Of a DNA stretch of 42,789 bases, positions 3,508 to 37,825 are shown in pieces (within the stretch, counting starts at the first letter, position 1; each line of letters opens with the position of its first letter). Source of the DNA: a virus (lineage: Duplodnaviria > Caudoviricetes); the IMG/VR virus record IMGVR_UViG_3300046048_000265, positions 1-42,789 of that record; one strand, given 5' to 3'. Both the position numbers and the translations under genes were made by a program. Below the pieces are notes generated by a model. It was not told where the DNA came from. It searched no databases and was given only the letters and a program-made list of their open reading frames with translations.

Positions 3508-3510
3508 GAA

Positions 3511-4281
3511 ATGAGCAGAGTGCTTTCGCCAGGAAACTATTTTGAGCTGCCAGACGCCAGCGTGTTGTCACTGCCGGTGCAGGCAGGGCTGTCGATTACG
3601 GCATGGGTTAAGTACGACGTGACTGGCGACCTGTCTTTGCGCCGAGGAGCCTATCAATATAATGACGAAGGCGGCGCGACAATATCGCGGATCTCGCTCA
3701 CAACCGCTTATAACCGAGAAGTACGGTCGTCAATTTATGACAAAAATGGCTATCCGAGAAATACGCCAAATAGCGAGCGCGGTGAAACGGTCCCAGAGGA
3801 TGTGTGGTTTCCTTTTGTTGTTTCCGTCAGGGAAGAAGATAACTATGGCGGTCGATTGGTCCACCCCTATCTTCAATCTCCGCTCACGCCAACTGGCGGT
3901 GATACGTGGATTCACAGCATCGCCACGCCAGAAATGAGAATCGGTGCAGAAGTGGCGGGCTGGGGCTTGCGCGGCAAGATGGCACACTTCACCATCTACG
4001 GGCGTGGCCTGACTGACGACGAAATCGACAACATCCTGGCGGGCAGACACCCGCTTACTATCGATGGGGTGGCCCACTATTGGCCTATGACGGAGGGCAC
4101 AGGAGACATCGTTGACTTGATTAACGGTGTTACTGTGCCAATGGTCGGCACTGTTGGAGAAGATGTAGAAGATAACCCGCCAGTCGATACAATCGTTTTG
4201 CCGGAGGCCAACCTGGCGGTCACTATCACCGGGCTGCCGCCCGATACGCTGCTGTATGGCTGGCTGGCGCAGTGGGTGTAG
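3511..4281 (+). CDS. LamG-like protein, paralogue of the N-terminal domain of 929..2815
   Basis: Shared blocks GNYFEL.DAS.LSLP, KYDVTGD.SLRRG, PEDVWFP, MAHFTIYGRGL, VTVPMVGTV, DNPPV; GGAGG upstream. Confidence 0.75.
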   Translation: MSRVLSPGNYFELPDASVLSLPVQAGLSITAWVKYDVTGDLSLRRGAYQYNDEGGATISRISLTTAYNREVRSSIYDKNGYPRNTPNSERGETVPEDVWFPFVVSVREEDNYGGRLVHPYLQSPLTPTGGDTWIHSIATPEMRIGAEVAGWGLRGKMAHFTIYGRGLTDDEIDNILAGRHPLTIDGVAHYWPMTEGTGDIVDLINGVTVPMVGTVGEDVEDNPPVDTIVLPEANLAVTITGLPPDTLLYGWLAQWV

Positions 4282-4285
4282 GCAA

Positions 4286-4651
4286 ATGGATAGGCGGTCG
4301 CTGCTGGTCCTGCTACTCGTCTCCGCGCACAGCGCGGCAGAGGACCGACCGTTGACGTTCTCTTGGACGGCGAAATTGACTCAGACCAATGGCACTGTCA
4401 TCGCGCCAGCGGACCTTGTGGTCACGGTGTACGACCAGTTCGACAACGAGGTTTGCACCGGAACGCACGATGGCGGCTGCGCGTCCACGCAACCGTGGGA
4501 TACGTGCGTCACTTACTACGCTGTGGCCACGCAGCTATCGACTACGCTGCAAAGCGCACCGAGCAGCGGGGTGGAGTCGTGCACTGGCCCTTTGCCCGTG
4601 TACGACACGCCGCCAAGCGCGCCTGCGCTGAATATCGAGCTGGGGCTATGA
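4286..4651 (+). CDS. Signal-peptide-bearing FN3-like small protein
   Basis: MDRRSLLVLLLVSAHSAA resembles a Sec signal; SWTA..TQTNGT...YYAVAT...SAPS FN3-like pattern; 4 Cys. Confidence 0.6.
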   Translation: MDRRSLLVLLLVSAHSAAEDRPLTFSWTAKLTQTNGTVIAPADLVVTVYDQFDNEVCTGTHDGGCASTQPWDTCVTYYAVATQLSTTLQSAPSSGVESCTGPLPVYDTPPSAPALNIELGL

Positions 4652-4759
4652 AGCTGCAATGTGTGCTGGAGTACATGTCTAAATGACCGGGGGCTACCCC
4701 TCGCATGCTTTGAATCAGGTTGATGGCGCGACCCAAACACTACCGTGGACGGCTCCATA

Positions 4760-14558: not shown

Positions 14559-15584
14559 TGTAGCAGTAGGGTGGAATGGTATGCCATCTTTAGTTAGATA
14601 GGCATACTCCACTCTTACTTGCTTTCCTATATATCGTCCTCTATTAAACATAACATGTTCCTTAAATTTCATATCTCCTGGCGCCGATACTGTAAAAGTA
14701 ATTTCTTCATCAGCGCATACTAGCCTCGCCCATCCATCTTTCGATGGAACTATATCAATAATAGTAAAGTCTTTGTCATGCCACGCCTTTACTTTAAGTA
14801 GTGATTTGCTTCTTTTACCCACTTCATATCCGCAATTATCAGATCTTACTATTAAGCCTTCATATCCATAGGCCAGAGCATCAGATAATTGCTGCTTCAT
14901 GTTACTAATAGCCTCTATTGGCCAGGCCGGCGCTAGCACAGCGGAACCTTTTAAGCTATAGTGCCGCAACTTCTGATACCGTTCCCTGAATGGCTCAGAA
15001 CTTATCATATCATATACTACATACGCCAATTTGTTAGTGTCCTCCTGTTTCCTTTTAATTAAAGATACTATTTCTTGCAGAGATAGATCATGATTATATA
15101 TCTCTCCATCTAGAGTTGCACCTACTGGAATATCTATTCCAGACAAGATGTGATCTATAGTTTCAATTTTCTTGCCATTCCTACTATATGCTATTAAACT
15201 TTTCCCATCATTGTATATTAGGCACCTATTGCCATCATACTTATATTGAACCATCGCTCCATCTAAATTAGTTTTTACTTTCTCAAAAGTGTGTGCTAGC
15301 ATTGGCTTCATAAGGCTGATTGCATTTGTACCAGCCCCCTCTAATGCTTCTTCTATTGTTGACTTATACCCTGCGCTTCTTTTTACCCTCGCTCTAGATT
15401 CAATTCTTAATTGCACTTGCTCATCTATACTTCTGTTCGATCTATTAGTATTAACAAACTCGTATCTGACTTGCTGCTGACCGTTGATCACTCCATGTGT
15501 GATACATATTTCATCTACTCCAGTGCGCTCGCATTGCCATATACGCAACACATTCTTAACATCTTGTCTGTATAATTTAATCAT
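14544..15584 (-). CDS. ATP-dependent DNA ligase
   Basis: KPMLA, KYDGNR (KxDG), LDGEIY, EGLIVR, RSKSLLKVK motifs. Confidence 0.92.
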   Translation of the reverse strand: MIKLYRQDVKNVLRIWQCERTGVDEICITHGVINGQQQVRYEFVNTNRSNRSIDEQVQLRIESRARVKRSAGYKSTIEEALEGAGTNAISLMKPMLAHTFEKVKTNLDGAMVQYKYDGNRCLIYNDGKSLIAYSRNGKKIETIDHILSGIDIPVGATLDGEIYNHDLSLQEIVSLIKRKQEDTNKLAYVVYDMISSEPFRERYQKLRHYSLKGSAVLAPAWPIEAISNMKQQLSDALAYGYEGLIVRSDNCGYEVGKRSKSLLKVKAWHDKDFTIIDIVPSKDGWARLVCADEEITFTVSAPGDMKFKEHVMFNRGRYIGKQVRVEYAYLTKDGIPFHPTATLIND

Positions 15585-15895
15585 CTGTTGTCTCCTTCTC
15601 CATCAATTACGTTCCGCTTGGAGCGACACGCTAGTTTTCTTATATTTGCATTCATTACAGTTTCCATATCTAAGCCTAGCTCAGAGCAGCAGGCTGCCAC
15701 CATCCATAAAACGTCTCCTAACTCCTTCTCCATTTCAACTATATCAACATGCACAAATGCTGCTTCGTCTCCATATCTCCTTAACATTTTAGCTATCTTC
15801 CCTGCTACCTCTCCAGCTTCTTCCACCAGACCAAGGAAAGGATAGAATCTTGATTTATAAATAGCAAATTCCATTGCTTCATCTTGATAGCTCAT
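15581..15895 (-). CDS. MazG-like nucleotide pyrophosphohydrolase
   Basis: LGLVEEAGEVAGKI.K...KELGDVLW...N..KL..R..G.GDNR. Confidence 0.88.
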   Translation of the reverse strand: MSYQDEAMEFAIYKSRFYPFLGLVEEAGEVAGKIAKMLRRYGDEAAFVHVDIVEMEKELGDVLWMVAACCSELGLDMETVMNANIRKLACRSKRNVIDGEGDNR

Positions 15896-18642
15896 ATCTC
15901 TACTCCAAAGTGACGGTTAAGGTTTACTATCTCATCGCATTTAATACGTCGCCATTTCTCGTTCTCAATACCTCCTTTTATAAGATACCAGTCTTTGCCA
16001 ACCCTTCCATTCTCTGTAATATCATGACCTAATCTATCATAGTCATAACGGCTAACAGTACAGCTAATAAGGTCAGTATCATCCTCTACGGTAAAGTTCA
16101 GATACATAGGGAATTGTTCCACACGTTCCCCGCCCCTGCGCTCCAAGAACACTTGCTCATTTAGGTTACGTGGGTTCCTATCTAGTAGCCTACCTATGAA
16201 TATAAATGAACCTTCTCCATCTACGTCCTTAATATACATTGGCCGCATTATGCCATACTGCTCAGGATTCTCGTATAAGCCTCCCCAATAGTGCTTAGCA
16301 GGGAATAGTATATCAAATGGAGTCTTAGGATTCTTCAGATGCTTATATAGCGATGGCGTTATCTTCCCCTTACCTTGACGCATCTTTAGAACCTGCTTGG
16401 CTTTCTCTGGTCCTATTCCAATTATATTGGACAGTCCTCCTATAATCTTTTCTCCATCAGTCTTCCATCCTATTTCTGATAGGTCTGCATCTACTGGTAC
16501 ATAATCTATTCCTTCGTTGACGACAATATCTCGTAAATATCTAACAGTGCTTTCAAAATTATCATTGTGATTAAGAACAGCAACAGAAAAATGCAATGGA
16601 TAATTAGCTTTAAGATATGCAGTCCAATACGATACAATACCATAACTGACTGCATGAGATTTGTTAAAGCTCCAGCTACCACTTGAACTAATATCTGTCC
16701 AAATTGATTCAGGATCATCATACCCATTACTTTTAGCTCCTTCTATGAACCTTTCTCTATACTGTCCAAAGAACTCATCACCTAGTGATTTAGATGCGGC
16801 CCGCCTCAGTGTTGAGGTGTCCTCCCAACTGAACCCTCCTATCTTTCTAGCTATCTCCATCATTTGCTCTTGGTACACTACGATACCAAATGTCTCTCCT
16901 GTTATCTCCTTATGTATATCAGAGTGATACCTTGCAGTTTTCTCTCCATTCTTTGTCATTATATATCTAGCAGTACCGCCACTGTTTAATGCCCCTGGTC
17001 TTGCTAGTGCTGTTATTGCAGCTATATCGTCGAATCGCTCTACCTTTATCTTTTTACAAATCATTTGCAGAGCTTGACCTTCAAACTGAAATATACCAGT
17101 CAGGCGGTGGCTATTAATTAGATCATATGTTTTAGCATCATCCAGCGGGACATTATACATATCGCGAGGGTCCATACCTATGGACTTGCAGCAATCTTCG
17201 ATTATTGAAAGAGTCTTTAGTCCCAAGCAATCTATTTTCAGTAGCCCTAGTTCCTCTGCTGTTTTCTTATCTAGCATTACCACTCCGTCCCTAGAGTTGA
17301 CACTAGCATAGTTAGTTAATGGTTCCGTGGAGACTAAGATCCCCGCAGCGTGTTTTCCCGCGTGGCTGGCATGATCTTCTATACGCTCCACGAGCCGCAT
17401 TGTTGGATACTGCTCTATAAACTTTTTACCTGCATCAGTAGTGTTGAATGTATCAAGTATCTGCATCTGAGCTCGTGCATCGCCTGAACTTCTTTCTATT
17501 ATAGATTGTTTGACGTCATCAGTCTCCCAAGGAGGAATACCGAGTCCTTTAGCAAACTCTCCAATTGCAAGTTTTGGTTTAAAACGATTAATATTTGCAA
17601 GGCCAGCAACGCGGTCATTGCCATATGTATTCTTAATATGGTCAATAACTTTGTATCTTTCCCTATCAGGGAAGTCGATATCAATATCAGGCAAATCGAA
17701 ACGATTAACGTCGATAAAGCGCTCAAAAATAAGACCGTGTACAATTGGATCTACCTCTGTTATATCAAGAAGATAGCATACAAGCGACCCAGCGGAACTC
17801 CCTCGTGCTGGGCCTACGAGCATCTCTTGTTTGGCCTTCTTAACTATACTGGACACTATTAAGAAGTAATCAGTATAATCTTTTTCCTTGATTAGATTTA
17901 GTTCTCTTTCAAGTCTTTGGCTATAGTCTGAACTAGAAAGATCAACTCCTTTTCTATTAGCACCTTCAATGCACAAATCTAATAAACCAACTGTGCCTTC
18001 GGATTTAACCATTCCGGCGGTAGGTATCCTAAAATCTTCACACTGCCGAGCAATGGCCTTGGTCTTTGCATAGACTATACTTGGCAGTTCTATATTGTCT
18101 ATTATATATTGCCTACCTGCTTTTGTATTAAATTTGTACATGTACCCATCGCCTCTTTTGCTAGACCCTGCCATGAGCTGATATACTTTTCTATCTTCTG
18201 GTTTAGGATAGTAATTATCATCTATAAAAATCTCTCCTGGTCTATATGAATCATGAGTGAATATTTCTTCTGGTCTGATTACAATAATATCGTTTAGACC
18301 TTCCAGCTGGTCTTTATATATTCTTGGAATATAATAGAATTGATCCCATGCCGTAGAAACTAGCTTATAAAGTTTAATCAATCCCTCCCTATTCTTTGCA
18401 ATGAATATTGTGTGCTCATGGCACAATCTCTGCTTAGTATTCCGTTCGACTACGTTAAGTCTAACTCCAAACAGTGGCTTAAAGCCATGCTTGTCAGCTA
18501 GCTTTTGTAACGGAACGTGGCCATACGTATTGTTTATGTCTGCTATGCCCACTACGCCGTCCTTGGCGTAGTTTGGAACATAGCTCATAGGCATGAAACA
18601 CTCTCTGAAAGAGTATTCAGTCTTTAGAGCTATATGGATCAT
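15892..18642 (-). CDS. dnaE: DNA polymerase III alpha subunit (family C)
   Basis: PHP-like N-terminus, GPARGSSAGSLV, FERF, PDIDID, KHAAG, KID.LGL, FNKSHA; start at 18642 by ATGA overlap. Confidence 0.95.
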   Translation of the reverse strand: MIHIALKTEYSFRECFMPMSYVPNYAKDGVVGIADINNTYGHVPLQKLADKHGFKPLFGVRLNVVERNTKQRLCHEHTIFIAKNREGLIKLYKLVSTAWDQFYYIPRIYKDQLEGLNDIIVIRPEEIFTHDSYRPGEIFIDDNYYPKPEDRKVYQLMAGSSKRGDGYMYKFNTKAGRQYIIDNIELPSIVYAKTKAIARQCEDFRIPTAGMVKSEGTVGLLDLCIEGANRKGVDLSSSDYSQRLERELNLIKEKDYTDYFLIVSSIVKKAKQEMLVGPARGSSAGSLVCYLLDITEVDPIVHGLIFERFIDVNRFDLPDIDIDFPDRERYKVIDHIKNTYGNDRVAGLANINRFKPKLAIGEFAKGLGIPPWETDDVKQSIIERSSGDARAQMQILDTFNTTDAGKKFIEQYPTMRLVERIEDHASHAGKHAAGILVSTEPLTNYASVNSRDGVVMLDKKTAEELGLLKIDCLGLKTLSIIEDCCKSIGMDPRDMYNVPLDDAKTYDLINSHRLTGIFQFEGQALQMICKKIKVERFDDIAAITALARPGALNSGGTARYIMTKNGEKTARYHSDIHKEITGETFGIVVYQEQMMEIARKIGGFSWEDTSTLRRAASKSLGDEFFGQYRERFIEGAKSNGYDDPESIWTDISSSGSWSFNKSHAVSYGIVSYWTAYLKANYPLHFSVAVLNHNDNFESTVRYLRDIVVNEGIDYVPVDADLSEIGWKTDGEKIIGGLSNIIGIGPEKAKQVLKMRQGKGKITPSLYKHLKNPKTPFDILFPAKHYWGGLYENPEQYGIMRPMYIKDVDGEGSFIFIGRLLDRNPRNLNEQVFLERRGGERVEQFPMYLNFTVEDDTDLISCTVSRYDYDRLGHDITENGRVGKDWYLIKGGIENEKWRRIKCDEIVNLNRHFGVEI

Positions 18643-19175
18643 ACAATATAACCTTTCTCGATAAGAAACCTGAGACAAGTGTGCAGCGCTCTAACATCAG
18701 AGTCTGCTCTATGGTGGTTCTTAATCGGTTGCCCCGTGGCTAGTAAGTGCAGGTCCGCCAGTCCCTGCCGCTTCCCTGTTATAGGAATCGAGGCTTCTGC
18801 TGTGCAGATATGCACTGATGGCCAAGGAAACTTATACTCGCATTCTATCCGCATAAGTTCATACATTAGCATCCCCCTATCGAATGCTACGTTATGCGCC
18901 ACCATGATGGTTTCTCCTAAGAAGAACTTTGCAAGATCTGGATAGATACCAGAGAACAGCGGTGCCCTTGCTACATCCTTATCCGTGATTCCAGTTATCT
19001 TAGTTATTTCTTCAGATATTGGAATTGGCGGCTTTACCATAGAATGATACTCGTCTATCTTCTTCATCGAGTCATCTATTTTCATACAATATATTTCAGT
19101 TATATATGGTTGTTTCGATATATCAGAAGATTCAGGACATAGCAGTCCAGTAGTTTCAGTATCGAATAAGATCAT
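18639..19175 (-). CDS. DEDDh 3'-5' exonuclease (Pol III epsilon-like)
   Basis: DTETTG, AHN..FD and HRA.SDV motifs. Confidence 0.92.
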   Translation of the reverse strand: MILFDTETTGLLCPESSDISKQPYITEIYCMKIDDSMKKIDEYHSMVKPPIPISEEITKITGITDKDVARAPLFSGIYPDLAKFFLGETIMVAHNVAFDRGMLMYELMRIECEYKFPWPSVHICTAEASIPITGKRQGLADLHLLATGQPIKNHHRADSDVRALHTCLRFLIEKGYIV

Positions 19176-19681
19176 ACCAATGGTTTCCTTAGTTGAGTTA
19201 CTAAGCAAAGATTCTCAAGACGATCTCCCATGATCATATTAGTTGCTATCTCCATATATTCTACTTTCCCTTTGCTATAGTCTTTATTTTGAAATAGGTT
19301 GGTCCATATTTTTTCAGAGAACGTCCTTTTGTGGTCTACATCTGTATGTGCCATCGCTCCTAAGTAGTATGGTACGACTATATTTATGTGGCCACCAGGT
19401 AGTAGTACCCTCCTCATTTCCTGCATCAGCGGAACGATATTTTGTATATGCTCTAGGAAATGGTAAGCATGGATCTGTGCCACTGTCCTAGAAGGATATG
19501 GCAGAGGATCTGTTTCTGCATTCCATTCAGGATATTCTAGCTCCTCAGTAAATGGTATAGTCTTATTGCCCGGTCCAAGATTTACAACTCGATACTTAAT
19601 AGGATCAAAGTCCTCTAATATCTCATTGTACTCTCTTTGCATACCAAGATTAAATAGATCCATCAGTGTTTGCATAGTCAA
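19172..19681 (-). CDS. Small class I SAM-dependent methyltransferase-like protein
   Basis: NLGPG, LPYP, HFLEH, E.RRVL.PGG motifs. Confidence 0.7.
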   Translation of the reverse strand: MTMQTLMDLFNLGMQREYNEILEDFDPIKYRVVNLGPGNKTIPFTEELEYPEWNAETDPLPYPSRTVAQIHAYHFLEHIQNIVPLMQEMRRVLLPGGHINIVVPYYLGAMAHTDVDHKRTFSEKIWTNLFQNKDYSKGKVEYMEIATNMIMGDRLENLCLVTQLRKPLV

Positions 19682-19922
19682 ACTCCATCAATATTTTAAG
19701 TAAATGAATTGCCTTTTCAATATCTTGCTTTCCACCTTTCTCCTTGTGTCGGGTTACATACTTTATTACACTACTCTCTATTGGACCTATCTTATTTTTG
19801 TGGCAGTATTCAATCGGCTGTATCTTCAATTTCTTGTAGTGGTCGCCCCCTACTTGCACTTCCAATGGAGCAATATCTACAGACGATTCCTTCGTTTCTG
19901 TAAACTCTGAATGCTCGATCAT
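19650..19922 (-). CDS. DUF3310 (T7 gp1.7/SaV-like) protein; start uncertain
   Basis: QVGGDHY....QPIE...KY.TR...KGG.QD..KA motif. Confidence 0.75.
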   Translation of the reverse strand: MIEHSEFTETKESSVDIAPLEVQVGGDHYKKLKIQPIEYCHKNKIGPIESSVIKYVTRHKEKGGKQDIEKAIHLLKILMEFDYANTDGSI

Positions 19923-20196
19923 CCCAAAATTCCGCAAACTCCCTTCTTTTGACATTAGTAATCTCGCAATCTCCAATTCCTTGTCGTTCAAGCCAGAGAG
20001 AAATTCTTGAATACTGTTCTGCATAATCATCGCCTGATAGTCTTGCAGTGAAGATCCATACTATGTCGCCTTGTTGCATCCATTCCTTTACTCGTTGCAC
20101 CATATCATTAATAGGATCTCCAATCTCTCCGTTTCTCTGGCTCCTATCATAGTGTGCAAGTGTACCGTCTAAATCAACTGCAATATGCTTAGCCAT
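19810..20196 (-). CDS. HAD-superfamily phosphatase
   Basis: DLDGTL motif I, FTAR motif II, DDR motif IV. Confidence 0.8.
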   Translation of the reverse strand: MAKHIAVDLDGTLAHYDRSQRNGEIGDPINDMVQRVKEWMQQGDIVWIFTARLSGDDYAEQYSRISLWLERQGIGDCEITNVKRREFAEFWDDRAFRVYRNEGIVCRYCSIGSASRGRPLQEIEDTAD

Positions 20197-20926
20197 TATA
20201 TATACCTGGATCTGCTACGTGACTCTCTAGTGACCAAATTTCTTGTATCGTATCCTTTTGTAGCTGCGATATTTTTACTGTGCTTTCTTGTATTGGACAC
20301 TCCTTATAGTTAGGGAAACAGCAGGTGCCATGTTTAGCGCAATGCACTCTTATCATTCTTTCAAACTCTGGATATAGCTTTATAACTTCAGCTTTCATCT
20401 TCTTAAATACTTCCTGATATTCCCCTGCTGTTCTATAGCAGAGCCTAGTTTCTGCCATATGCGATAGCTCTCTGAGGTCTATCTTAGCAATGATAGAAGT
20501 TAGAACTCCAGTTGGCAAGATCTCTCTTGCATCTTGAATAGCATAGCCATTCAATAATAGTTCCTGGTAGTTATTTGCAGCCTCGTGGTACATTATGTCC
20601 AGCAGCGGAGTTGCATTTGGCGGCATATAGAATTGCTTATTTGACGCATCTACTGCTCTGAGCGATTCCTGAGCGTATGACGCGTTCCTCGTGCGGACCA
20701 ATTGGTGCGTAAAATTTCGACTAACGCCTGTAATAGAAAAAGTAAAATGAACAAACTCAAAGCTAGACTTAATAGTGCCGAGCATATAATTAAGTTCATC
20801 CATTTTTCTATCGTATGACCAATTCTTAATATCCTCGATTCCATACTGTCCTTGCAACCTCGTGCTTTTTGTAAGAATTAATTTCTCGATTGCATCAGTG
20901 GTGTAATCTATAATTTCTACTTCCAT
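20189..20926 (-). CDS. thyX: FAD-dependent thymidylate synthase ThyX-like protein
   Basis: SRNFTHQLVRTRNASYAQES (RxR-X7-S), QDAR.ILP, RLC motifs. Confidence 0.82.
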   Translation of the reverse strand: MEVEIIDYTTDAIEKLILTKSTRLQGQYGIEDIKNWSYDRKMDELNYMLGTIKSSFEFVHFTFSITGVSRNFTHQLVRTRNASYAQESLRAVDASNKQFYMPPNATPLLDIMYHEAANNYQELLLNGYAIQDAREILPTGVLTSIIAKIDLRELSHMAETRLCYRTAGEYQEVFKKMKAEVIKLYPEFERMIRVHCAKHGTCCFPNYKECPIQESTVKISQLQKDTIQEIWSLESHVADPGIYNG

Positions 20927-21834
20927 CGCATTGCCCTCTCATAAGGAGTAAGTTCGATCATATCTCTAATAATATACAGATCTTTTAAGACATTATCAAG
21001 TAATACTGATGGCCTCCAGCAAGCTACCCTTCCAAGAGAGTAGACGTTATGTAACATAGTTAATTGTGCGATTGCTTTCTGACGAGCAACTTCATCTATC
21101 TTTATCATCTTGCCTATTGTCTGTTTATAGTTTTTAATAATATGTTCCTTTATACTATTTATGCCAAGTGATTTTAAAATAAATCCAATATCTTCTCCTG
21201 TCCTATCTATTTCATAAATAGATTCTATTATTAATTGGTCACCTTCTACTGTTGCTCTATATATGTGCGTATTGCTATCAGGATAATATACTGTTTGGTA
21301 CAGGTCGCATCCATTTATCGTATATCTATTAACATATATCGAACTATATTTTGGATCATCAAAGGAGACTGGATCATTTATAGGGAAGATCTCATGGTTC
21401 TTTTTCATTTGCAGAGTAGTTATGATTGGAAGGTCCATAGACATTCTGCTAGAAAATTGGCAGATATTTTCTTCTACAAATATTCTATCCTGCACTGAAT
21501 TAATGAGTCGCTCTCCAAAGTCCACCGGCGCAATAAAGCGTTCCGCTGGCTGGCAGTTAGCAATAGACCGATCAGCATATCCTCCTGTAACTTTGAAGCT
21601 ATACATATTCATAGCTTTTATATTGGGATTTATATATTCACCGCCTGACCATATTCCCTTATACACTGTGACCTTTTTAAAGGGAATTCCAGTAAGCTTA
21701 GATATTGCATCAGAGCGAAATCTAAGCAATGCTTTGTGGCCAGAGCTTATAGTTTCTTTATCAACTACTGCTTCAGCATGTGGAAAGACCTTTAATGCTA
21801 GTGCAGCGGTCATACCATTTCCTAAAATCAGCAT
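20917..21834 (-). CDS. Putative flavoprotein/oxidoreductase-like protein
   Basis: N-terminal ILGNGMTA degenerate Rossmann motif, HKALLRFRS, C-terminal YSLGR.A.WR. Confidence 0.5.
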   Translation of the reverse strand: MLILGNGMTAALALKVFPHAEAVVDKETISSGHKALLRFRSDAISKLTGIPFKKVTVYKGIWSGGEYINPNIKAMNMYSFKVTGGYADRSIANCQPAERFIAPVDFGERLINSVQDRIFVEENICQFSSRMSMDLPIITTLQMKKNHEIFPINDPVSFDDPKYSSIYVNRYTINGCDLYQTVYYPDSNTHIYRATVEGDQLIIESIYEIDRTGEDIGFILKSLGINSIKEHIIKNYKQTIGKMIKIDEVARQKAIAQLTMLHNVYSLGRVACWRPSVLLDNVLKDLYIIRDMIELTPYERAMRWK

Positions 21835-21903: not shown

Positions 21904-22509
21904 TTATGCAACGCTTCCAATCAACCTCTTTGCGAAGGTAATGTAGCCCAGGAAATGGGTTTCGTTGCGCTTCGTGTTGTTGGAAGTTTCATCAAAGCCA
22001 TTGCGACCGTGGATGCAATCCTTAGCTTGATCTTGCGTAGGCAACTCTCCATTGGTGCCAAGAGTCGTAACGATCCAATCAAGATAACGCTTGGTGAAGC
22101 CAGTCGGTCCTGTCGGCTCTTTCTCAGGAACAAAGTAGGTCAGATCATTCTTTTTAGCATATCCACGTACCAGGGCACCAGCGGACCTTACTGTGATCTC
22201 GTTGATCTCCTCCATGATTGCTTCAATTGCTTTTTCATAACCTTCTTCCGTTGAAATATCTGAAGCGGTTACTGCTTTTGATACAATTGCGTCACGATCT
22301 TCTTTTGCAAGTGCAAGTCCAGCATCAATCATGAACTGATTGTACATGCGAGCTACGTTCTTGAAAGATGCTCCAGCTTGAATCATGGACATCTTAATTG
22401 AATCTTCATCTTTATTCGCAGCTACCGCCGCATCAAATGCTTCACGGATCTTGGAATCTGCATCTTGCTGTTCAGTTTGCTCTACTGCTTTCAGTTCTGC
22501 TACGCTCAT
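21904..22509 (-). CDS. Hypothetical protein (paralogue of 33039..33407)
   Basis: AAGGAG RBS; own terminator; helical 201 aa. Confidence 0.75.
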   Translation of the reverse strand: MSVAELKAVEQTEQQDADSKIREAFDAAVAANKDEDSIKMSMIQAGASFKNVARMYNQFMIDAGLALAKEDRDAIVSKAVTASDISTEEGYEKAIEAIMEEINEITVRSAGALVRGYAKKNDLTYFVPEKEPTGPTGFTKRYLDWIVTTLGTNGELPTQDQAKDCIHGRNGFDETSNNTKRNETHFLGYITFAKRLIGSVA

Positions 22510-28563: not shown

Positions 28564-28770
28564 TTAGGCTGTGCGGATGGCTTTCACAGTGTCTTCCAGC
28601 GCGTAGTAGCTGGCCATAGCGCGGAGATAGCGCTGTTGGGCTTTGTCGCGGGTTTCCTGGCTGACGCCTGCCACCAGCAGGCTCTGTAGCAGGTGCTCGC
28701 GCGCGTCGTCATACTCGTAACGCACTGATCGGTAGATGTCCTTTAGGTTCTCTGGTACGTCCATAAGCAT
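28564..28770 (-). CDS. Early hypothetical protein (GC-rich)
   Basis: 68 aa; GGAG RBS. Confidence 0.6.
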   Translation of the reverse strand: MLMDVPENLKDIYRSVRYEYDDAREHLLQSLLVAGVSQETRDKAQQRYLRAMASYYALEDTVKAIRTA

Positions 28771-28810
28771 TTACTCCAGTTGGTAGGGGGCTTCCTTGCC
28801 CCCGATTAGT

Positions 28811-28966
28811 TTACTTGCTCTCGTTTTCTTCTTTACGGATCCGTTCGATTTCGCGAACGGTTTGCTCCCAAGTCTCCCCTCCAGATACGATCTTCCTGCT
28901 CCAAAGATCGCAAGCCCAGATATAATAACCTTTCTTATCCTTTGCTTTAGTAATTGCAAGTACCAT
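28811..28966 (-). CDS. First early gene, 51 aa (MVLAITKAKDKKGYYIWACDLW...)
   Basis: AAGGAG RBS 7 nt upstream of ATG; stop just before an intergenic hairpin. Confidence 0.6.
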   Translation of the reverse strand: MVLAITKAKDKKGYYIWACDLWSRKIVSGGETWEQTVREIERIRKEENESK

Positions 28967-29043
28967 CTTTTTTCTCCTTCCAAATCGGATTTTTTAACTT
29001 GGGCAAAACGCCCGCCCCTCCGGGAAGCCCGAAAGGGAATCTA

Positions 29044-29072
29044 ATAGTACCCTAGATCGAATATGGAATAAA
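29044..29072 (-). promoter_or_regulatory. Sigma70-like leftward early promoter
   Basis: TTTATT-17bp-TACTAT on the minus strand. Confidence 0.45.
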
Positions 29073-29172
29073 GCACTATCGTCTCCATATAAGCTAATAT
29101 TTACCTGGTATTAAGAGTTACTAATATGTTATATTTCTTATCTAGATCCATTAATAAAATGCTTAATTGGAG

Positions 29173-29201
29173 TTGCTTTTAGGGATTAGATAAGGTACTA
29201 T
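29173..29201 (+). promoter_or_regulatory. Sigma70-like promoter for primase
   Basis: TTGCTT-17bp-TACTAT. Confidence 0.6.
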
Positions 29202-29251
29202 ATAGTAGAGAGAGGGAATAAACCCTCTTTTGTTCATTATAAGGAAGCCAG

Positions 29252-31938: not shown

Positions 31939-32451
31939 TAAGAGGCCACATACGTATCTATAAATAGTGGTTAAAGTTCCGCTGGCGGTGGCTATTATAG
32001 CGCCGCCTTTTGGTAAAAAAGTTCTCTTTTCTCTAAAAGGGTTCCCTCGAAAATAGAGGTAAGTGCTTGATTAGTAAGGAATTCCTCTATTCTTGTTTTT
32101 TCGTCGAGGGTGTGAGCGTGCGAGGGAGAGAATGCGGAACGGCCTAGCATAGATCGCAAGCGAATGCAATAGAAAACCAAAAAATAAATCTGCGAGAAAA
32201 CAAGGGAATAAGAAAATAAAAAATACCCCCCTATATATATATATAGATCAAGCACTTAGACTTATTCCCCTGTTTTAGCTTTTTCCCCCGATTCCGATCC
32301 CCCCCTATTTACTTTTGCTAAAAAGTATGCTCCACACCTTTTCGCGGTCCTACCGCTTCTTTTTATCCTTTAATCTATCTGTCAGCCGAGCCAGCGGATT
32401 TGATTCACCCTCTAGGGGCTTAGTCCCGCCGGGATGGGATAGGCTACGGCC

Positions 32452-32662
32452 AACCACAGTGCGAGATTGGTTCCATGGGAGTGTGCTGAACCAACAGGAC
32501 CCTGTGGCCACCACAGTGGTATGGAAACAGAGTGCGAAACCAAACCAGAGTGTTGATTCCAACCACAGTGTGCAATTTGGTACCAGTGATGGAAACCAAA
32601 CCACAGTGCGCAACCAAACCAGCAGTGCCCCTGAAAACAGAGTGAGCAACCAAACCACAGTG
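32452..32662. repeat. Array of CCACAGTG / CAGAGTG motifs
   Basis: Exact CCACAGTG at 32454, 32511, 32563, 32601, 32655 plus variants at 32525, 32545, 32619, 32635. Confidence 0.8.
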
Positions 32663-32770
32663 CTGTGATTCCAGATGGGTGGTGATATTCCAGACAGGCG
32701 GCTGGCACCACCCCAGCGGACCTGCACCACCTGGTTCCGTGGGGAACATACCAGCTGTGAATTCCGGACG

Positions 32771-32796
32771 AAAAAAAGGCCGCTTTCGCGGCCTTT
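32771..32796 (-). terminator. Intrinsic terminator
   Basis: Minus strand AAAGGCCGC-GAAA-GCGGCC followed by T7. Confidence 0.85.
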
Positions 32797-32801
32797 CCGT
32801 T

Positions 32802-32975
32802 TTACTCGACTATCGTATGCCTCGATAGTAGCATTGCGAATTCGATAGCAAGATCTTCTAGATACTTGCAACCGTTGCAAGTTCCGCAACCGCAATCGTT
32901 GCGGAACGAACCCGCGAATAGCAATTGCTCGAATATCTCGTTTTCGACTTCGTCTAGCTCGATTACTTTAGGCAT
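32802..32975 (-). CDS. 57-aa acidic protein with a CGCGTCNGC cluster (absent from the ORF track)
   Basis: AGGAAAGGA RBS; MPKVIELDEVENEIFEQLLFAGSFRNDCGCGTCNGCKYLEDLAIEFAMLLSRHTIVE; terminator follows. Confidence 0.7.
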   Translation of the reverse strand: MPKVIELDEVENEIFEQLLFAGSFRNDCGCGTCNGCKYLEDLAIEFAMLLSRHTIVE

Positions 32976-33007
32976 TTTCCTTTCCTTTTTCCGGGTTTCG
33001 TTTAAGT

Positions 33008-33030
33008 AAAAAAAGGCGCTTCCTTGCGCC
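33008..33030 (-). terminator. Terminator hairpin with AAGGAA (CsrA-type) loop
   Basis: Minus strand GGCGC-AAGGAA-GCGCC followed by T7. Confidence 0.7.
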
Positions 33031-33038
33031 GGATACGG

Positions 33039-33407
33039 TTATATCGCTTCTAGTAACGCTTTAGCGAAAGAACCGTACGTCTTCTTATAGTAGTCTTCGT
33101 GCCGAATCGTATTACTTGCCTTAGGATCCTTTCGACCGTTCGGGTAATACCGATTAACGGTTTCCTCGAAAGTATCGTTTAGGATAGCGTCGTTAACGGT
33201 TTGCTCGTTTTCGACGATAGCCGAGATTAAGGCACGTTCGAACTCGGTTCGGAAAGTCTCTCTTCTAGCGGACGTAAGGCCCGCTTCTAGCAAAGCGGAT
33301 TCTATCTCCGTTTCCGAAAATCCCTTTTTCTTTAAAAGGGACTTAACTTGCCCGACCGTAAGACCGAGATCGATTGCCGAAGATACTACTTCGATTGCGT
33401 TTTGCAT
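33039..33407 (-). CDS. Putative immediate-early protein (122 aa)
   Basis: GGAG RBS; own promoter and terminator; similar to 21904..22509. Confidence 0.75.
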   Translation of the reverse strand: MQNAIEVVSSAIDLGLTVGQVKSLLKKKGFSETEIESALLEAGLTSARRETFRTEFERALISAIVENEQTVNDAILNDTFEETVNRYYPNGRKDPKASNTIRHEDYYKKTYGSFAKALLEAI

Positions 33408-33501
33408 TTTAATTAACTCCGATTAGGTTAACTAACCGGCCCGGTATTAGGCCGGTCCTATCGGTTCGGGCCTTTCCGTTTCGCCCCGAACCGATAAAAG
33501 A

Positions 33502-33531
33502 ATTATAGTCCGAATCCGTTTCCGATAGCAA
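33502..33531 (-). promoter_or_regulatory. Sigma70-like early promoter with A-rich UP region
   Basis: TTGCTA-18bp-TATAAT on the minus strand. Confidence 0.65.
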
Positions 33532-33560
33532 GAACTTTCTTCTTTTATTTTCTATCCAGT

Positions 33561-33642
33561 ATTAACATATCGTAATATTAACATATCGTAATCATTAACA
33601 TATGGTAATTATTAACATATCGTAATATTAACATATCGTAAT
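33561..33642. repeat. Five tandem copies of ATTAACATATCGTAAT
   Basis: Copies at 33561, 33577, 33594 (one mismatch), 33611, 33627. Confidence 0.95.
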
Positions 33643-33717
33643 ATTAGCCACTCCTAATGTACCAGGGGGGTATTGCAATTCCAGGTCAGCCGGACGTCAA
33701 CCTGACACAATTCTCCT

Positions 33718-33792
33718 AAAAAAATTTTTCAAAAATTTTTCAAAATTTTTTCAAATTCTTTTCAAAATTCTTTTCAAAATTCTTTTCAAAAT
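33718..33792. repeat. Phased A/T-tract repeat (CAAAATTYTTTT, 11-12 bp period)
   Basis: About six consecutive units. Confidence 0.85.
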
Positions 33793-34028
33793 CTATCCCC
33801 CACAATCCTTTTCCAATAAACTTTCCTCATTTCTTTTCCTTTCCTTTCATTCTAGCCCTCCCTACCTCTACCCCTACCTTACCCCTTGCCTACTGCTGCA
33901 ACGTGCCTAGAATCGGCTCCTGCGTGGTCCTATAGTGCCTTGCGCTACCTTGCGCGGTCCTTTGCGGCCTTTGCTCCCTTCCTTATAGGGACGCACCACC
34001 AGCGGAACGCCCCACCCTATTGCGGGGA

Positions 34029-34081: not shown

Positions 34082-34456
34082 ATGAGCAATAGATTAGCAC
34101 TTACTTACAACAGATACGCCAATCTGCATAACTGTGAGAACTTTGATGAGGATATGCTAATCAGAATCGAAGATCTTGCGGCTGGACTATCGGAAACAGA
34201 AGCATTGTCATTCTGGGGACTCAAGGATGAAGACCTGAACAATGCAGAAAGGCGATACTTCAAACTTGCATATCAGAGAGGATTGGCCAAGGCAAAACAG
34301 GCTGCCACTGAAAAGCTGTTCTCGGCTATGAGCGACAGGAATGGTGGCGCATTGGCACTTCGTTATCTCCAGCTCTTTGGAGAAAAGTTCCCGGCTGATG
34401 ATGACGGACGACTGGCATCTGGAAATGGCTTCTCGCTCAAGATCGTAAAAGAATGA
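34082..34456 (+). CDS. Putative terminase small subunit
   Basis: Helical ~124 aa protein immediately upstream of and overlapping terL; AGGAG RBS. Confidence 0.6.
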   Translation: MSNRLALTYNRYANLHNCENFDEDMLIRIEDLAAGLSETEALSFWGLKDEDLNNAERRYFKLAYQRGLAKAKQAATEKLFSAMSDRNGGALALRYLQLFGEKFPADDDGRLASGNGFSLKIVKE

Positions 34457-35922
34457 TTGTGAGTCGAGTTAACACTACTGAGCGACTCTACGTGGCATCT
34501 CCTACGATGAGGAAATTCCACGCAGATTCTTCTTTTGTCAGAGCCCTGATGGGACCAATCGGATCTGGCAAATCAGTGGCTTGTTGCATAGAAATGAACA
34601 TAAGAAGCCAAGAACAATCACCAGATTCAATGGGCATAAGAAGATCCAGATGGGCGGTAGTCAGGAACACATATAGAGAATTGATAGACACCACAATGGA
34701 GACTTTCTTTGCATGGTTTCCAAAAGAAATCGGAATGTACAGAGCAGGAGATATGAAGTTCACACTTGCATATCATTTAGCTGATGGCACATCTGTGCAT
34801 TCTGAATTCTTATTCAGAGCTCTGGACAAACCAGATGATATCAAAAAACTGCTCTCTCTTGAACTTACAGGAGGGTGGATCAATGAAGCTCGTGAAATAC
34901 CTAAGCAAGTCCTTGATATGCTCATGGGCAGGGTTGGCAGATATCCAGCAGAAGGGTCCATATGGTCAGGTATAATAATGGACACCAACCCGCCAGATTC
35001 AGACCATTGGTGGTATAGGCTCTTTGAAGAAAGTCACTTGGAGCGTTATAAGTTATTTAAGCAACCAAGTGGGCTGTCTAAAGAGGCAGAGAACCTAGAG
35101 AACTTGCTACAGCCACCCGCAGCGGAACGCTCTTTACTTTCCATCGAGGAGCGCCGCGAGATTGGCCGCGAATACTATCATAGAATGGAAGAAGGAAAAG
35201 ACCAGGAATGGATTAATGTCTATATACATGGACAGTACGGTTTTGTAAGTGATGGCAAGCCAGTCTATCCTGAATATAAGGATGATACTCATCATACTGA
35301 TAAGAAGTTCACTCCTGATCCTACAAAACCAATCTATATTGGCATAGATTTTGGTCTTACACCAGCGGCCATATTTGGTCAGAAAAGCGCTGCTCATAGA
35401 TGGTATATATTCGATGAGCTTGTTTGTGAGGATATGGGAGCAAAGAACTTCTCTGAATTGCTCAATCAGATGATCAGTAACAAATATAAGGACTATGAAT
35501 TTGATATATATGGAGATCCATCTGGAGACTTCAGAGCGCAAACAGATGAGATCACTCCTTTTCAGATTCTACAAGCATCTGGCATAATGGCCACCCCAAC
35601 TTATACAAATGATTTTATTATCAGAAGGGAAGCGGTTGCAGCACCACTTATGCGCCTTGATTTCGCAGGCAATAGTGGCTTTGTGATTACGGATGGCGCA
35701 CCAATCACAAGGAAAGGTCTTGCAGGTGGATATAAATATAAAAGAATGGCAGTAAGTGGTACAGATAGGTTCCAAGATAAGCCTGATAAGAACAGATATT
35801 CGCATCCATGTGAAGCTTTGCAATATCTTATGGTCGGAGCTGGTGAAGGTAATGCTGTTATCAAGATCAAAGGATATGATCGTGATATAGATTACTCCAA
35901 TTACGATAGATTGGTGGTCTGA
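34453..35922 (+). CDS. Terminase large subunit
   Basis: GPIGSGKS Walker A, WINEARE Walker B, DTNPP, GIDFG, YGDPSG, SHPCEALQY motifs. Confidence 0.95.
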   Translation: MIVSRVNTTERLYVASPTMRKFHADSSFVRALMGPIGSGKSVACCIEMNIRSQEQSPDSMGIRRSRWAVVRNTYRELIDTTMETFFAWFPKEIGMYRAGDMKFTLAYHLADGTSVHSEFLFRALDKPDDIKKLLSLELTGGWINEAREIPKQVLDMLMGRVGRYPAEGSIWSGIIMDTNPPDSDHWWYRLFEESHLERYKLFKQPSGLSKEAENLENLLQPPAAERSLLSIEERREIGREYYHRMEEGKDQEWINVYIHGQYGFVSDGKPVYPEYKDDTHHTDKKFTPDPTKPIYIGIDFGLTPAAIFGQKSAAHRWYIFDELVCEDMGAKNFSELLNQMISNKYKDYEFDIYGDPSGDFRAQTDEITPFQILQASGIMATPTYTNDFIIRREAVAAPLMRLDFAGNSGFVITDGAPITRKGLAGGYKYKRMAVSGTDRFQDKPDKNRYSHPCEALQYLMVGAGEGNAVIKIKGYDRDIDYSNYDRLVV

Positions 35923-35923
35923 T

Positions 35924-37825
35924 ATGCCTGCTGTTTCTAAGTTAGATGAAGTTCTGCGAATTCTTCTGAATAGCAAAAAGCCGCCAAAGATCGATGATCT
36001 TGAAGGGTATTTGCTCAGTAGAGGCGTGAAGCCAGACGAGATTAAACACTCTGGCTTCTCTAGCATTATTGAAGCATTGCAATTTTCTGGAGTAACTGGT
36101 CCAGTTTCAAATAAGGATCTTGAGGACTTCATTAAATTAAGGACAGATCGTATTAAAGTAACACCTTCCGACAAATGGAAAATTGTTGCTCCAAATAAAG
36201 ATGAAGCTGGCAGAGCATTTTCAGAAGATGATTATTTTGGAAATGTATATAGGAGCGAAAAGGGTGATTTTGCCTTTAACAACTGGGAACTAGCAAGAGA
36301 ACCACATTCCTATAAATACAATGCGCCAGCATCTGTCCACTTTCCTGAGGAAGATTATATTGCTCATGCAAGAGGTTATGACACTCCTGAATCAAGGACG
36401 ATTTTCGAGCTTCAATCAGATGTTCATAATACTGGCAGCAGGGGTAGATATGGTGATCCATATTCTAATTTTGATTACAAGGATTTTGATACAGTTCATG
36501 AGTATAGAGAAAAACATGGCTCGTATCCAGATCGCGGAGAACTTTATGCAGCAGCAGCAGGACTAAACTCTGATCCTGAAATTGTTGCGCTAGCAAATAT
36601 ATTTGAAAGATATGGAAGAAGATATTCAGCAACGAATAATGGCGTCATGTCTGATCAAGATATAGTGAAGTTTTTTGATAGTGTTGCAGATGGAGATAAG
36701 CTATATACTGATCCTGTCAAGGGAGTTCCAGACGTTCCATTTAAGAAAGATAAGTGGGTTACAAGAACTCTTGAAAGAGAACTAGATACGGCAGTTAAGG
36801 CTGGTAAGCCATTAGAGGTATTGATGGATACTAGGGGCAAAACTCTCAGTAGTGCATCAAGAGGGCAATCATATCATGATAAGTATTATGCTCCTGGAAG
36901 AAAAATTGATCAATCTCTTAAAGCTCTGGCAGCTAAGCATGGCTTGAATATTGAAGATGTAAACACTGGAGGTATGGTTCCTGCTCCTAGAGATGAGGTT
37001 TTTGATAGATACATGGATTATACAAAGGATATGGAGGATCCTTTAGATAGACTGGCATTTCTGCAACATTTGACAACGTCTTTTGATTCACCGTTTAGCA
37101 ACGAATTGTATAATGCTAAAAATCATCCATATACTCTTGCATCTTATTACGCACAGAAGCATAGAGACAGAATCCCTGAGATTATTGAGAGGGGGGCGGC
37201 AATTGATGCAATGTATCCTGATAAGACTCCTGAAGAAATACTGGAGTTGATGGAGTCTGGTGCGGATAACCTTCCACCATATGCTTTTCACTATAAGACA
37301 TATTATGGATTAAATAACTTTGATAAATTTTTAGAAAAACATAAGAATAAACCAAAAGAGACATTTGATCCTGGTGCTAGGTATGTGAGGGTTACTGATC
37401 CAAAGAATAGGGCAGGAAAAGGACTGGATTATTACGAATATGGCAAATTGGATCCTGCTACAGCAGCAGCATTATCTGCCACCAGCGGAGCCTCTTATGG
37501 ACTCCAGCAGTTTTTGGCCAAGAAGCAACGTGAGCAAAAGACCGCTGAAGAATCTATGGGACTTGCTGCTGGTGATATGAGTAATTATGGAACTGCAAGT
37601 CAGGCTGGCAGCGGTCAGAATTTTGCAAATGCTGCTCAGAACATCGGTGTTGATTGGTTGGAGCAATATTATAAAGGAAAGAATAATATCGCTAGCATGT
37701 TTTATGCTGATGATCCAAATAAATATACATCAGAAATGGATTATGTCAAGCGATTAAGAGAAAAGTATGGTAATACTGAGGGCAATCCTGTTTACGATGT
37801 TGGCTCATTCCTTGTTGGACCTTGA
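35924..37825 (+). CDS. 633-aa protein between terL and portal, resembling polyvalent/ejection-protein domains
   Basis: GVKPDEIK.SG, HAR...FELQSD and VPDVPFK..W motifs; function uncertain. Confidence 0.5.
   Translation: MPAVSKLDEVLRILLNSKKPPKIDDLEGYLLSRGVKPDEIKHSGFSSIIEALQFSGVTGPVSNKDLEDFIKLRTDRIKVTPSDKWKIVAPNKDEAGRAFSEDDYFGNVYRSEKGDFAFNNWELAREPHSYKYNAPASVHFPEEDYIAHARGYDTPESRTIFELQSDVHNTGSRGRYGDPYSNFDYKDFDTVHEYREKHGSYPDRGELYAAAAGLNSDPEIVALANIFERYGRRYSATNNGVMSDQDIVKFFDSVADGDKLYTDPVKGVPDVPFKKDKWVTRTLERELDTAVKAGKPLEVLMDTRGKTLSSASRGQSYHDKYYAPGRKIDQSLKALAAKHGLNIEDVNTGGMVPAPRDEVFDRYMDYTKDMEDPLDRLAFLQHLTTSFDSPFSNELYNAKNHPYTLASYYAQKHRDRIPEIIERGAAIDAMYPDKTPEEILELMESGADNLPPYAFHYKTYYGLNNFDKFLEKHKNKPKETFDPGARYVRVTDPKNRAGKGLDYYEYGKLDPATAAALSATSGASYGLQQFLAKKQREQKTAEESMGLAAGDMSNYGTASQAGSGQNFANAAQNIGVDWLEQYYKGKNNIASMFYADDPNKYTSEMDYVKRLREKYGNTEGNPVYDVGSFLVGP

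Follow-up and report, generated by a model that had tools for sequence, protein, structure and literature searches.

The viral record IMGVR_UViG_3300046048_000265 of IMG/VR (42,789 nucleotides), which we analysed at its full length and refer to as the window, derives from an uncultured phage of the Caudoviricetes; it was assembled as complete and is known from contigs only. It contains a stretch (32759–33557) in which TG occurs only as TGC on both strands, and this stretch, which we call the CA/TG void, is co-extensive with one predicted transcription unit. It is probable that a TG modification made by the phage itself drives the void. The explanation we favour, at a probability of about 0.4, is that the phage hypermodifies T at TG and that its first-expressed unit has been cleared of TG on both strands for the host RNA polymerase.

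The void is under a per-site constraint

The first-pass annotation of the window, made from the sequence alone, had described positions 32761–33555 as empty of ACA, TCA, CCA, TGA, TGT and TGG (together HCA/TGD) and of CAG and CTG. Our counts agree: all these words are absent, all 12 CA dinucleotides are part of GCA and all 14 TG dinucleotides are part of TGC. The gap between HCA/TGD trimers spans 798 bp (32759–33557), bounded by a TGA (32758) and a CCA (33556); the next-longest gap for these six trimers elsewhere in the 42.8-kb genome is 148 bp. The annotation's estimate of about 75 expected trimers was accurate as well, as mononucleotide shuffling of the void gave 75.2 ± 7.0 (minimum 53 in 2,000 shuffles), against an observed number of zero.

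Recoding the two proteins encoded in the void with genome codon usage yielded 43.2 ± 4.7 trimers, and shuffling the genes' own synonymous codons yielded 18.9 ± 3.1 (minimum 8); zero was reached in none of the 10,000 trials of either kind. The 253 non-coding bases of the void likewise contain no HCA/TGD trimer. The codon-aware shuffles and the empty non-coding bases rule out codon bias, which the annotation had already judged insufficient, as well as amino-acid composition and chance. The void is under a per-site constraint. An assembly artefact was also ruled out: near-identical contig pieces in runs X2, X3 and X4, from three other studies, overlap parts of the void.

In the void, TGC (counted on both strands) is present near the genome rate (26 versus 30) and TA steps occur at the normal rate (60 in 795 bp). 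CG, which is scarce genome-wide (1,547 in 42.8 kb), is enriched about threefold (82 versus ~29 expected). The lowest CA+TG count per 800 bp in the genome is 27 of 111. The tolerated TG context in the window void and in that of a related contig, L003 (see below), is mainly WTGC: the residual TG comprises 37 TTGC, 12 ATGC, 3 GTGC and 1 CTGC, the genome-wide ratio being 532:405:285:388. In the five genes of these two voids C follows each of the seven Met codons, TGA is not used as a stop, and Trp is absent.

The void coincides with one predicted transcription unit

The words "early", "promoter" and "terminator" are used here for consensus predictions. The annotation had placed a promoter, two genes and two terminators between sharp edges, and this description holds, the void corresponding to a single predicted unit on the minus strand. 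Read in the direction of transcription, the unit consists of a predicted sigma-70 promoter (33502–33531; TTGCTA and TATAAT spaced by 18 bp, 10 of 12 consensus positions), a strongly structured 5' leader with three hairpins (33410–33500; −44.9 kcal/mol, z −5.9), a gene for a 122-amino-acid (aa) protein (33039–33407), a terminator-like hairpin with an AAGGAA hexaloop and a U-tract (33015–33030), a gene for a 57-aa acidic protein with a four-cysteine cluster and no family (32802–32975), and a predicted intrinsic terminator (32771–32796). The upstream edge of the void lies at about −61 of the inferred start site in the window and at −62 in L003, and the downstream edge lies 11 bp past the last U of the terminator in both. 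The −35 variants TAGACT and TTTACT have no diagnostic value, as they are found in relatives that have no void at the gene level, too.

A DNA-level search of the void region against 50,697 phage records gave zero matches, and the void genes did not match an early-protein profile. The 122-aa protein, predicted to fold into two small helical domains, was found at no other locus in viral contigs. One protein search returned two relatives, and a profile search returned 12 matches, six of which are long proteins aligned over short stretches. No PHROG, NCBIfam or PADLOC family was assigned to it, the only hint, to RecX, being sub-threshold, and its predicted fold gave no significant match (Foldseek best E 0.56; VIA best Z 6.9). 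It contains 19 Asp and Glu versus 16 Lys and Arg residues, and Ocr appeared only at the background level (Z 5.3, root-mean-square deviation 3.2, 70 aligned residues).

Throughout the clade a protein family is retained at this position, and the 122-aa protein probably belongs to it as a divergent member. Its position and weak profile matches (E 0.006–0.065) link the 122-aa protein to short paralogs of a clade-conserved 201-aa protein (21904–22509, minus strand); a direct comparison of the 122-aa and 201-aa proteins was not significant (probability 0.3%). The presence of the 201-aa protein beside the flavoprotein described below, together with a short paralog in the early cassette, is a clade-wide arrangement. 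In relatives the short paralog is the gene upstream of TerS (L001 6119–6781 and L002 100–723, and also in L020, L010, L025 and L186). The cassette proteins do not decide between the polymerase and nuclease explanations weighed below.

Voids and partial voids in related phages

According to its large terminase (TerL; 34453–35922, plus strand), the window phage is closest to Vibrio phage VA-RY-3 (58% identity) and Cronobacter phage Ss1 (56%). Among 82 terminase-related sequences, many of which are too short to cover the region, a gap longer than 200 bp was present in one, L003, whose TerL is 80% identical. The comparison with related phages, which the first-pass annotation had suggested, showed the rule in this one: L003 has a void of 1,000 bp at the position of the window void, with three genes and the same TGC rule, in a different sequence. 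The protein shared by the two voids is 41% identical, and the other two L003 genes, in the place of the 57-aa gene, encode unrelated small proteins.

Other relatives show depletion over shorter distances. Most of the first gene is CA/TG-poor in L006 (7 versus 39 expected), as is the small first gene of VA-RY-3 (5 versus 17), whereas in L010, L014 and L020 only the first 150 nucleotides of the first gene are affected, and in Ss1 and G002 only the promoters. The genes of G035, L015, L023, L025 and L004 have no CA/TG void. VA-RY-3 and Ss1 contain eight and nine long CA/TG-free tracts, respectively, compared with at most four for any other dinucleotide. These tracts are mostly intergenic, except for one inside the ligase gene of both phages, at the same relative position (L001 26486–26579 in VA-RY-3 and L002 21727–21895 in Ss1); it is possibly an internal promoter or an origin. 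In VA-RY-3, CA+TG is at about 50% of expectation or lower in seven of the 11 intergenic gaps longer than 60 bp, and higher in the other four. CA/TG-poor internal promoters and intergenic tracts of VA-RY-3 also lie far from the end (13 versus 55, 3 versus 12.7 and 4 versus 10.4). In L028 (1275–1612), tandem repeats rich in TGC/GCA are free of other CA/TG, which is the same TGC exemption.

Flanks of the void and weaker CA/TG-poor zones

Just past the terminator lies a repeat block (32448–32758) that includes the densest 300 bp for CA+TG in the genome (70 versus a mean of 41.5) and is rich in CCA/TGG (34 versus 10.8), as is its counterpart in L003. In the window (32448–32758), in L003 (7996–8296) and in phage MyoSmar (2050–2350), but not in Bas100, the TG-free unit and its terminator are followed by a repeat block dense in TG/TGG. 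Such a block could be a heavily modified roadblock or an entry stop.

On the other side, 16-bp and 11-bp tandem repeats with ordinary CA/TG (33560–33797) lie between the promoter and the presumed small terminase. They are centred on the motif GGGGGTATTGCAAT, which is present in L003 too, and they are a candidate packaging signal or end region. The 150 bp upstream of the void promoter also have ordinary CA/TG. The annotation had placed the void beside the probable packaging end. This stands insofar as the void adjoins the terminase genes, its promoter points inward, and its equivalent in MyoSmar lies within a PhageTerm-predicted terminal repeat; the edges of the void, however, track the promoter and terminator and not the DNA end. 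The position by the terminase and the inward promoter suggest early entry. The record's ends overlap by 127 bp, a likely assembly overlap.

Weaker CA/TG-poor zones are found elsewhere in the window. One is intergenic (31940–32400; 30 versus 56 expected, and 34 versus 62 in L003). Another (28738–29240, minus strand) covers the divergent promoter region and the first open reading frame (ORF) of the replication-side operon; here the annotation had noticed a milder void lacking ACA, TCA, TGA and TGT, which we recovered as a 390-bp gap (28738–29128) with 26 CA+TG versus 54 expected. The likely gene in this zone is a 51-aa ORF (28811–28966) whose three Trp codons force some TG. In addition, the promoter region upstream of the 201-aa gene is CA/TG-poor (5 versus 12.4), and the corresponding region holds 3–8 versus ~12 CA+TG in nine of 11 flavoprotein-bearing sequences.

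An enzyme module shared with Pbunavirus

The window encodes, on the minus strand, a set of genes of which four have counterparts in Pbunavirus LMA2. They comprise a candidate modification enzyme, a 305-aa flavoprotein with a UDP-galactopyranose-mutase fold that is 33–38% identical to Lindbergviridae proteins (20917–21834); a non-canonical ThyX with VRTR replacing RHR (20189–20926); HAD phosphatase-like, DUF3310 and class I methyltransferase-like genes (19172–20196); and a proofreading exonuclease, DNA polymerase III (Pol III) alpha and a MazG-like pyrophosphatase (15581–19208). The genes from the flavoprotein to the methyltransferase-like one lie upstream of Pol III alpha, and the MazG gene lies downstream of it. 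Identities to Pbunavirus LMA2 are 35% for Pol III alpha, 38% for the exonuclease, 42% for ThyX and 36% for the flavoprotein, and the flavoprotein is also present in F8 (E 5e-48), Bas100 and MyoSmar. Terminase and portal gave no match between the window phage and LMA2. The window phage thus lies outside Lindbergviridae, lacking a homologous TerL and portal and having a genome of 42.8 kb versus the 60–72 kb of those myoviruses.

The 305-aa protein has no Pfam or NCBIfam family match. Its model (predicted local distance difference test 90) matches UDP-galactopyranose mutases with a Foldseek E of 3e-8 and template-modelling scores of 0.56–0.64 for the top hits, at 9–13% identity. It matches 362 phage records, mostly of Pseudomonas phages, and Pbunavirus and other Lindbergviridae dominate the best 60 of the 362. 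The window's thymidylate synthase has a ThyX fold; it scored 80.5 bits against a cut-off of 87.9 for NCBIfam thyX and passed Pfam Thy1. No deoxyuridine monophosphate hydroxymethylase, 5-hydroxymethyldeoxyuridine (5hmdU) DNA kinase or aGPT-Pplase was named among the 53 ORFs compared with PHROGs or the 25 compared with Pfam, no search having used those enzymes as queries.

Between ThyX and the exonuclease lies a slot whose content swaps between methyltransferase-like, sulfotransferase-like and FabG-like reductase genes (window 19172–19681; L001 21766–22521; L194 12634–13425; L322 6523–7206). Judging by a motif that we take to be that of sulfotransferases, the gene in the slot of VA-RY-3 and G049 is sulfotransferase-like. 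The swapping suggests that one base is tailored differently in each lineage. At the position of the flavoprotein, G049 and G035 have a highly diverged version of it (L194 10726–11613 and L186 12781–13674) and a third type of ThyX (QQQLTRTR), possibly a second version of the module.

The ThyX reaction is described as having an intermediate with an exocyclic methylene, which could be captured by a nucleophile (PMC8989533). For the sugar-modified cytosine of phage RL38J1, the listed candidate genes include one for a mutase (PMC13326640). We infer that a sugar-modified T of the Pbunavirus type is the product of the flavoprotein/ThyX/Pol III module. A literature search, with most subscription journals outside its reach, found no report of a ThyX/mutase modification pathway.

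Association of CA/TG depletion with the module

In Pbunavirus F8 and 14-1 about a quarter of T carries a sugar-derived modification, and its TG motif was assigned from F8 digests (bioRxiv 10.1101/2025.03.31.646159); TG holds 27% of T in F8. Two other module-bearing myoviruses show equal depletion, the lowest CA+TG count per 800 bp being 22 of 114 in Bas100 and 18 of 115 in MyoSmar, compared with 27 of 111 in the window; their residual TG shows no TGC rule. The MyoSmar void lies within the predicted terminal repeat. CA+TG is found 25 times in the first 200 bp of this repeat, and the depletion sets in shortly ahead of the first −35 box, which lies at 255.

Of 38 whole or near-whole genomes, only three (the window, Bas100 and MyoSmar) had a trough below z −7.8. 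A test of 300-bp troughs excluded the window, four genomes picked for gaps and the two lead genomes. The troughs were deeper in 19 carriers not picked for gaps than in nine terminase relatives that were negative by tblastn (p = 0.009). Among these nine relatives, G035 and G049 showed troughs of their own, and both were then found to carry the diverged flavoprotein; with these two moved, the comparison of 21 carriers with seven non-carriers gave p = 1e-4, a value that includes a post hoc reclassification and compares related genomes. The seven terminase relatives without the module have no trough (z300 −1.9 to −2.8). Among loci of at least 5.5 kb selected by Pol III, most of which do not include a genome end, five loci from three distinct phages have one long gap.

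Restriction data on Wifcevirus, to which Bas100 belongs, also bear on this point. We take the motifs of EcoCFT_II and EcoP1_I to be CACAG and AGACC, and these reproduce the published Wifcevirus site counts, 87 and 90. The virus resists the type III enzyme EcoCFT_II and is sensitive to EcoP1_I, at similar site numbers (PMC11990801), which fits TG protection.

Host polymerase as a proposed source of the constraint

The mechanism that we favour has four steps. First, the flavoprotein/ThyX/Pol III module would make the sugar-modified T. Second, in this lineage the modification would fall on TGA, TGG and TGT and largely spare TTGC and ATGC. Third, the bulky major-groove group would slow promoter binding and elongation. 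Fourth, even a slight cost at each site would, given a large phage population, suffice for all avoidable TG to be purged from the first transcript, for which the race is critical; in later units only the promoters would be cleared. This reading is supported by the fact that L003 has kept the rule and not the sequence, and by the equal depletion in the two module-bearing myoviruses. Three observations lead us to prefer the host RNA polymerase to modification-dependent nucleases as the source of the cost: the edges of the void fit the footprint of a polymerase, the clearing extends to internal promoters, and a block dense in TG begins 11 bp past the terminator.

Several points weigh against this reading. 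The modified T was measured in F8 and 14-1, whereas the window phage and its clade are known from genes alone, and the module genes of Pbunavirus are themselves a candidate pathway. For most genes, transcription still has to proceed on TG-rich DNA. The agreement of the edges between the window and L003 is not fully independent, as the downstream edge lies in sequence common to both and the upstream edge in an A/T tract. A deep void is present in only three of 28 whole genomes with the module, all three being the window or lead genomes, and the reclassification of G035 and G049 was post hoc, as stated. There is no void in F8 (56 of 98 per 800 bp) or in its congener LMA2 (62 of 98), nor in M6, ViI and phiW-14, although kinase-type T modifiers show a TG preference (PMC6449724, PMC13458397). 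The intergenic/coding TG ratio is 0.91 in 71 flavoprotein-bearing sequences versus 0.89 in controls, and a genome-wide promoter-consensus scan was flat (observed/expected 0.96 versus 0.99), though false sites dominate such a scan. Since F8, LMA2, M6, ViI and phiW-14 are void-free and the intergenic and promoter scans are flat, the modification may permit a void and does not compel it.

Two sets of restriction data add to these points. The sites of FspI, BsgI and ApaLI presumably all contain TGC, which we confirmed for FspI. F8 DNA resists the three enzymes (bioRxiv 10.1101/2025.03.31.646159); TGC sites are thus protected there, and the TGC exemption in the window therefore needs a specificity different from that of F8. 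Wifcevirus also resists EcoRI (PMC11990801), and its 19 EcoRI sites are TG-free, so that TG modification leaves this resistance unexplained.

Other explanations

The strongest competitor, which we nevertheless hold to be rather unlikely, accepts the self-made TG modification and places the cost in host modification-dependent nucleases or glycosylases of the END or GmrSD type, the first unit staying bare until an inhibitor is made. END nucleases are reported to restrict TG-modified Pbunavirus early, and some such phages encode inhibitors (bioRxiv 10.1101/2025.03.31.646159). The deep voids are located at genome ends or close to them, their ORFs are small, swappable and often acidic, and the unit that has to remain uncut would likewise run from promoter to terminator; a host-dependent pressure would, moreover, account for a void in only some carriers. 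This explanation fails to account for the CA/TG-free tracts of 100–190 bp at internal promoters far from the end. It also has to accommodate the densest TG block of the genome abutting the void, 11 bp from the terminator, and a 122-aa family that is kept across the clade with or without a void, unlike a patchy inhibitor.

The first-pass annotation had proposed that the first-injected DNA is purged of the targets of host sequence-specific defences until phage inhibitors act. Extended to type I/III restriction, BREX and CCA phosphorothioate systems, this idea seems to us improbable, and for restriction words of the type II kind it does not hold, as palindromes are enriched in the void: TCGA occurs 12 times versus 1.9 expected, CCGG six versus 1.0 and GGCC six versus 1.9, 6-bp palindromes number 15 versus 8.9, and GAATTC, GGATCC, AGATCT and TCTAGA all occur. 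In its favour, many type I/III motifs contain CA or TG (CACAG was checked), the void adjoins the terminase genes, and motifs in the leading region decide the type I sensitivity of Autographiviridae (PMC12455610). However, motifs of 5–7 bp demand far less than the erasure of a dinucleotide, and this erasure, on both strands and even at the base after Met, points to an agent acting at nearly every TG. CG, scarce genome-wide, is enriched along with the palindromes, the void contains an AGACC site, the seven module-free terminase relatives have no trough, and the DNA between the void and the likely end retains normal CA/TG.

A local mutational process turning TG or CA into CG, without selection, is very improbable. 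It would account for the threefold CG enrichment, but synonymous selection yields CG too, and the process explains neither the sharp edges at functional boundaries nor the absence of Trp and the C after seven of seven Met codons. The residual TG in the weaker zone and in the first gene of VA-RY-3 is mostly codon-forced. Three in-void variants in run X4 create no CA/TG, a number too small to weigh.

Least probable of all is an RNA-level or physical cause, either avoidance of an mRNA endonuclease word (the word of MazF is ACA, which is absent, and the void equals a transcript) or a stiffening of the DNA for ejection by the loss of the flexible CA/TG steps, because the two strands are empty to the same degree, the void takes in the untranscribed promoter, TA steps are normal and TGC occurs at the genome rate.

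Further features of the window

Hairpins with a 5-bp stem and an ANGGAN hexaloop recur on the minus strand of the window (33030, 28802, 28243, 27082 and 18569) and in relatives (L003 8774, 8567 and 3324; G035 403 and 8637; G049 6778), mostly directly after the stop codons of small early-side genes and before the next ribosome site. They resemble what we take to be the consensus of CsrA/RsmA binding sites, as presumably does the AAGGAA loop at 33015–33030, and they may serve Csr control or sponging. A 633-aa gene without family (35924–37825) lies between TerL and the portal, where VA-RY-3 and Ss1 have none. The tail-fibre region (929–6835) has 53–57% G+C versus ~41% elsewhere, and this shift suggests a recent acquisition.

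Significance and comparison with known systems

How the host polymerase reads the first genes of phages with bulky modified bases is a question that has rarely been addressed. If our reading is true, dinucleotide voids are a detector, from sequence only, of hypermodification and its context; a clade of small phages joins the therapeutic Pseudomonas myoviruses as carriers of the TG modification; ~18% of T would be modified in the window if TGD only is the target and ~25% if all TG is; and the resistance of Wifcevirus to the CACAG-cutting and not to the AGACC-cutting enzyme is partly explained. More tentatively, the genome sequence might be regarded as a mask, in which TG-free windows mark the first sites of the host polymerase and the TG-dense block after the terminator acts as a stop like that of base J. 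The void would then be a negative image predicting the modification and its context (TGA, TGG and TGT, sparing WTGC) in two unrelated virion lineages. Cultured relatives exist in VA-RY-3, Ss1, Bas100 and MyoSmar.

Leading DNA poor in restriction sites is the first known system to compare. The first-entry regions of T5 and T7 are site-poor leading DNA with a similar end-proximal unit. In the leading DNA of Autographiviridae, as in the void, a motif is missing from a short unit near the end that has a host promoter and contains small genes (PMC12455610). In the window, by contrast, a dinucleotide is missing on both strands, palindromes are enriched, and the edges are a promoter and a terminator.

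The 5hmdU-kinase hypermodifiers M6, ViI, phiW-14 and SH-Ab 15599 share a bulky T modification with a preference for TG (PMC6449724, PMC13458397, PMC8989533), but M6, ViI and phiW-14 have neither the flavoprotein nor a CA/TG void. Base J of kinetoplastids, a sugar-bearing T linked to the stopping of RNA polymerase, is eukaryotic and made by different enzymes; the TG-dense block that follows the terminator in the window resembles it by analogy only.

The cassettes of Wifcevirus (Bas100) and Myosmarvirus (MyoSmar) match the window in depth, small ORFs, host-type promoters without TTGACA and possession of the module. Those phages are, however, myoviruses with multi-promoter cassettes of ~1.5 kb and no TGC rule, whereas the window has a single unit and a strict rule. 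With Pbunavirus F8 and 14-1, the window phage has in common Pol III alpha, the exonuclease, the non-canonical ThyX and the mutase-fold flavoprotein, and the context modified there is the word missing here. It differs in its virion lineage, in tolerating TGC where F8 protects TGC sites, in having a void where F8 and LMA2 have none, and in being known from genes alone. Our literature search, with most subscription journals outside its reach, found neither a TG/CA-free early region nor modification-free promoters. The avoidance of motifs in early DNA has precedents, and so does hypermodification in a TG context; the link between a TG-free early unit and the phage's own modification, for which we found no paper, appears to be new.

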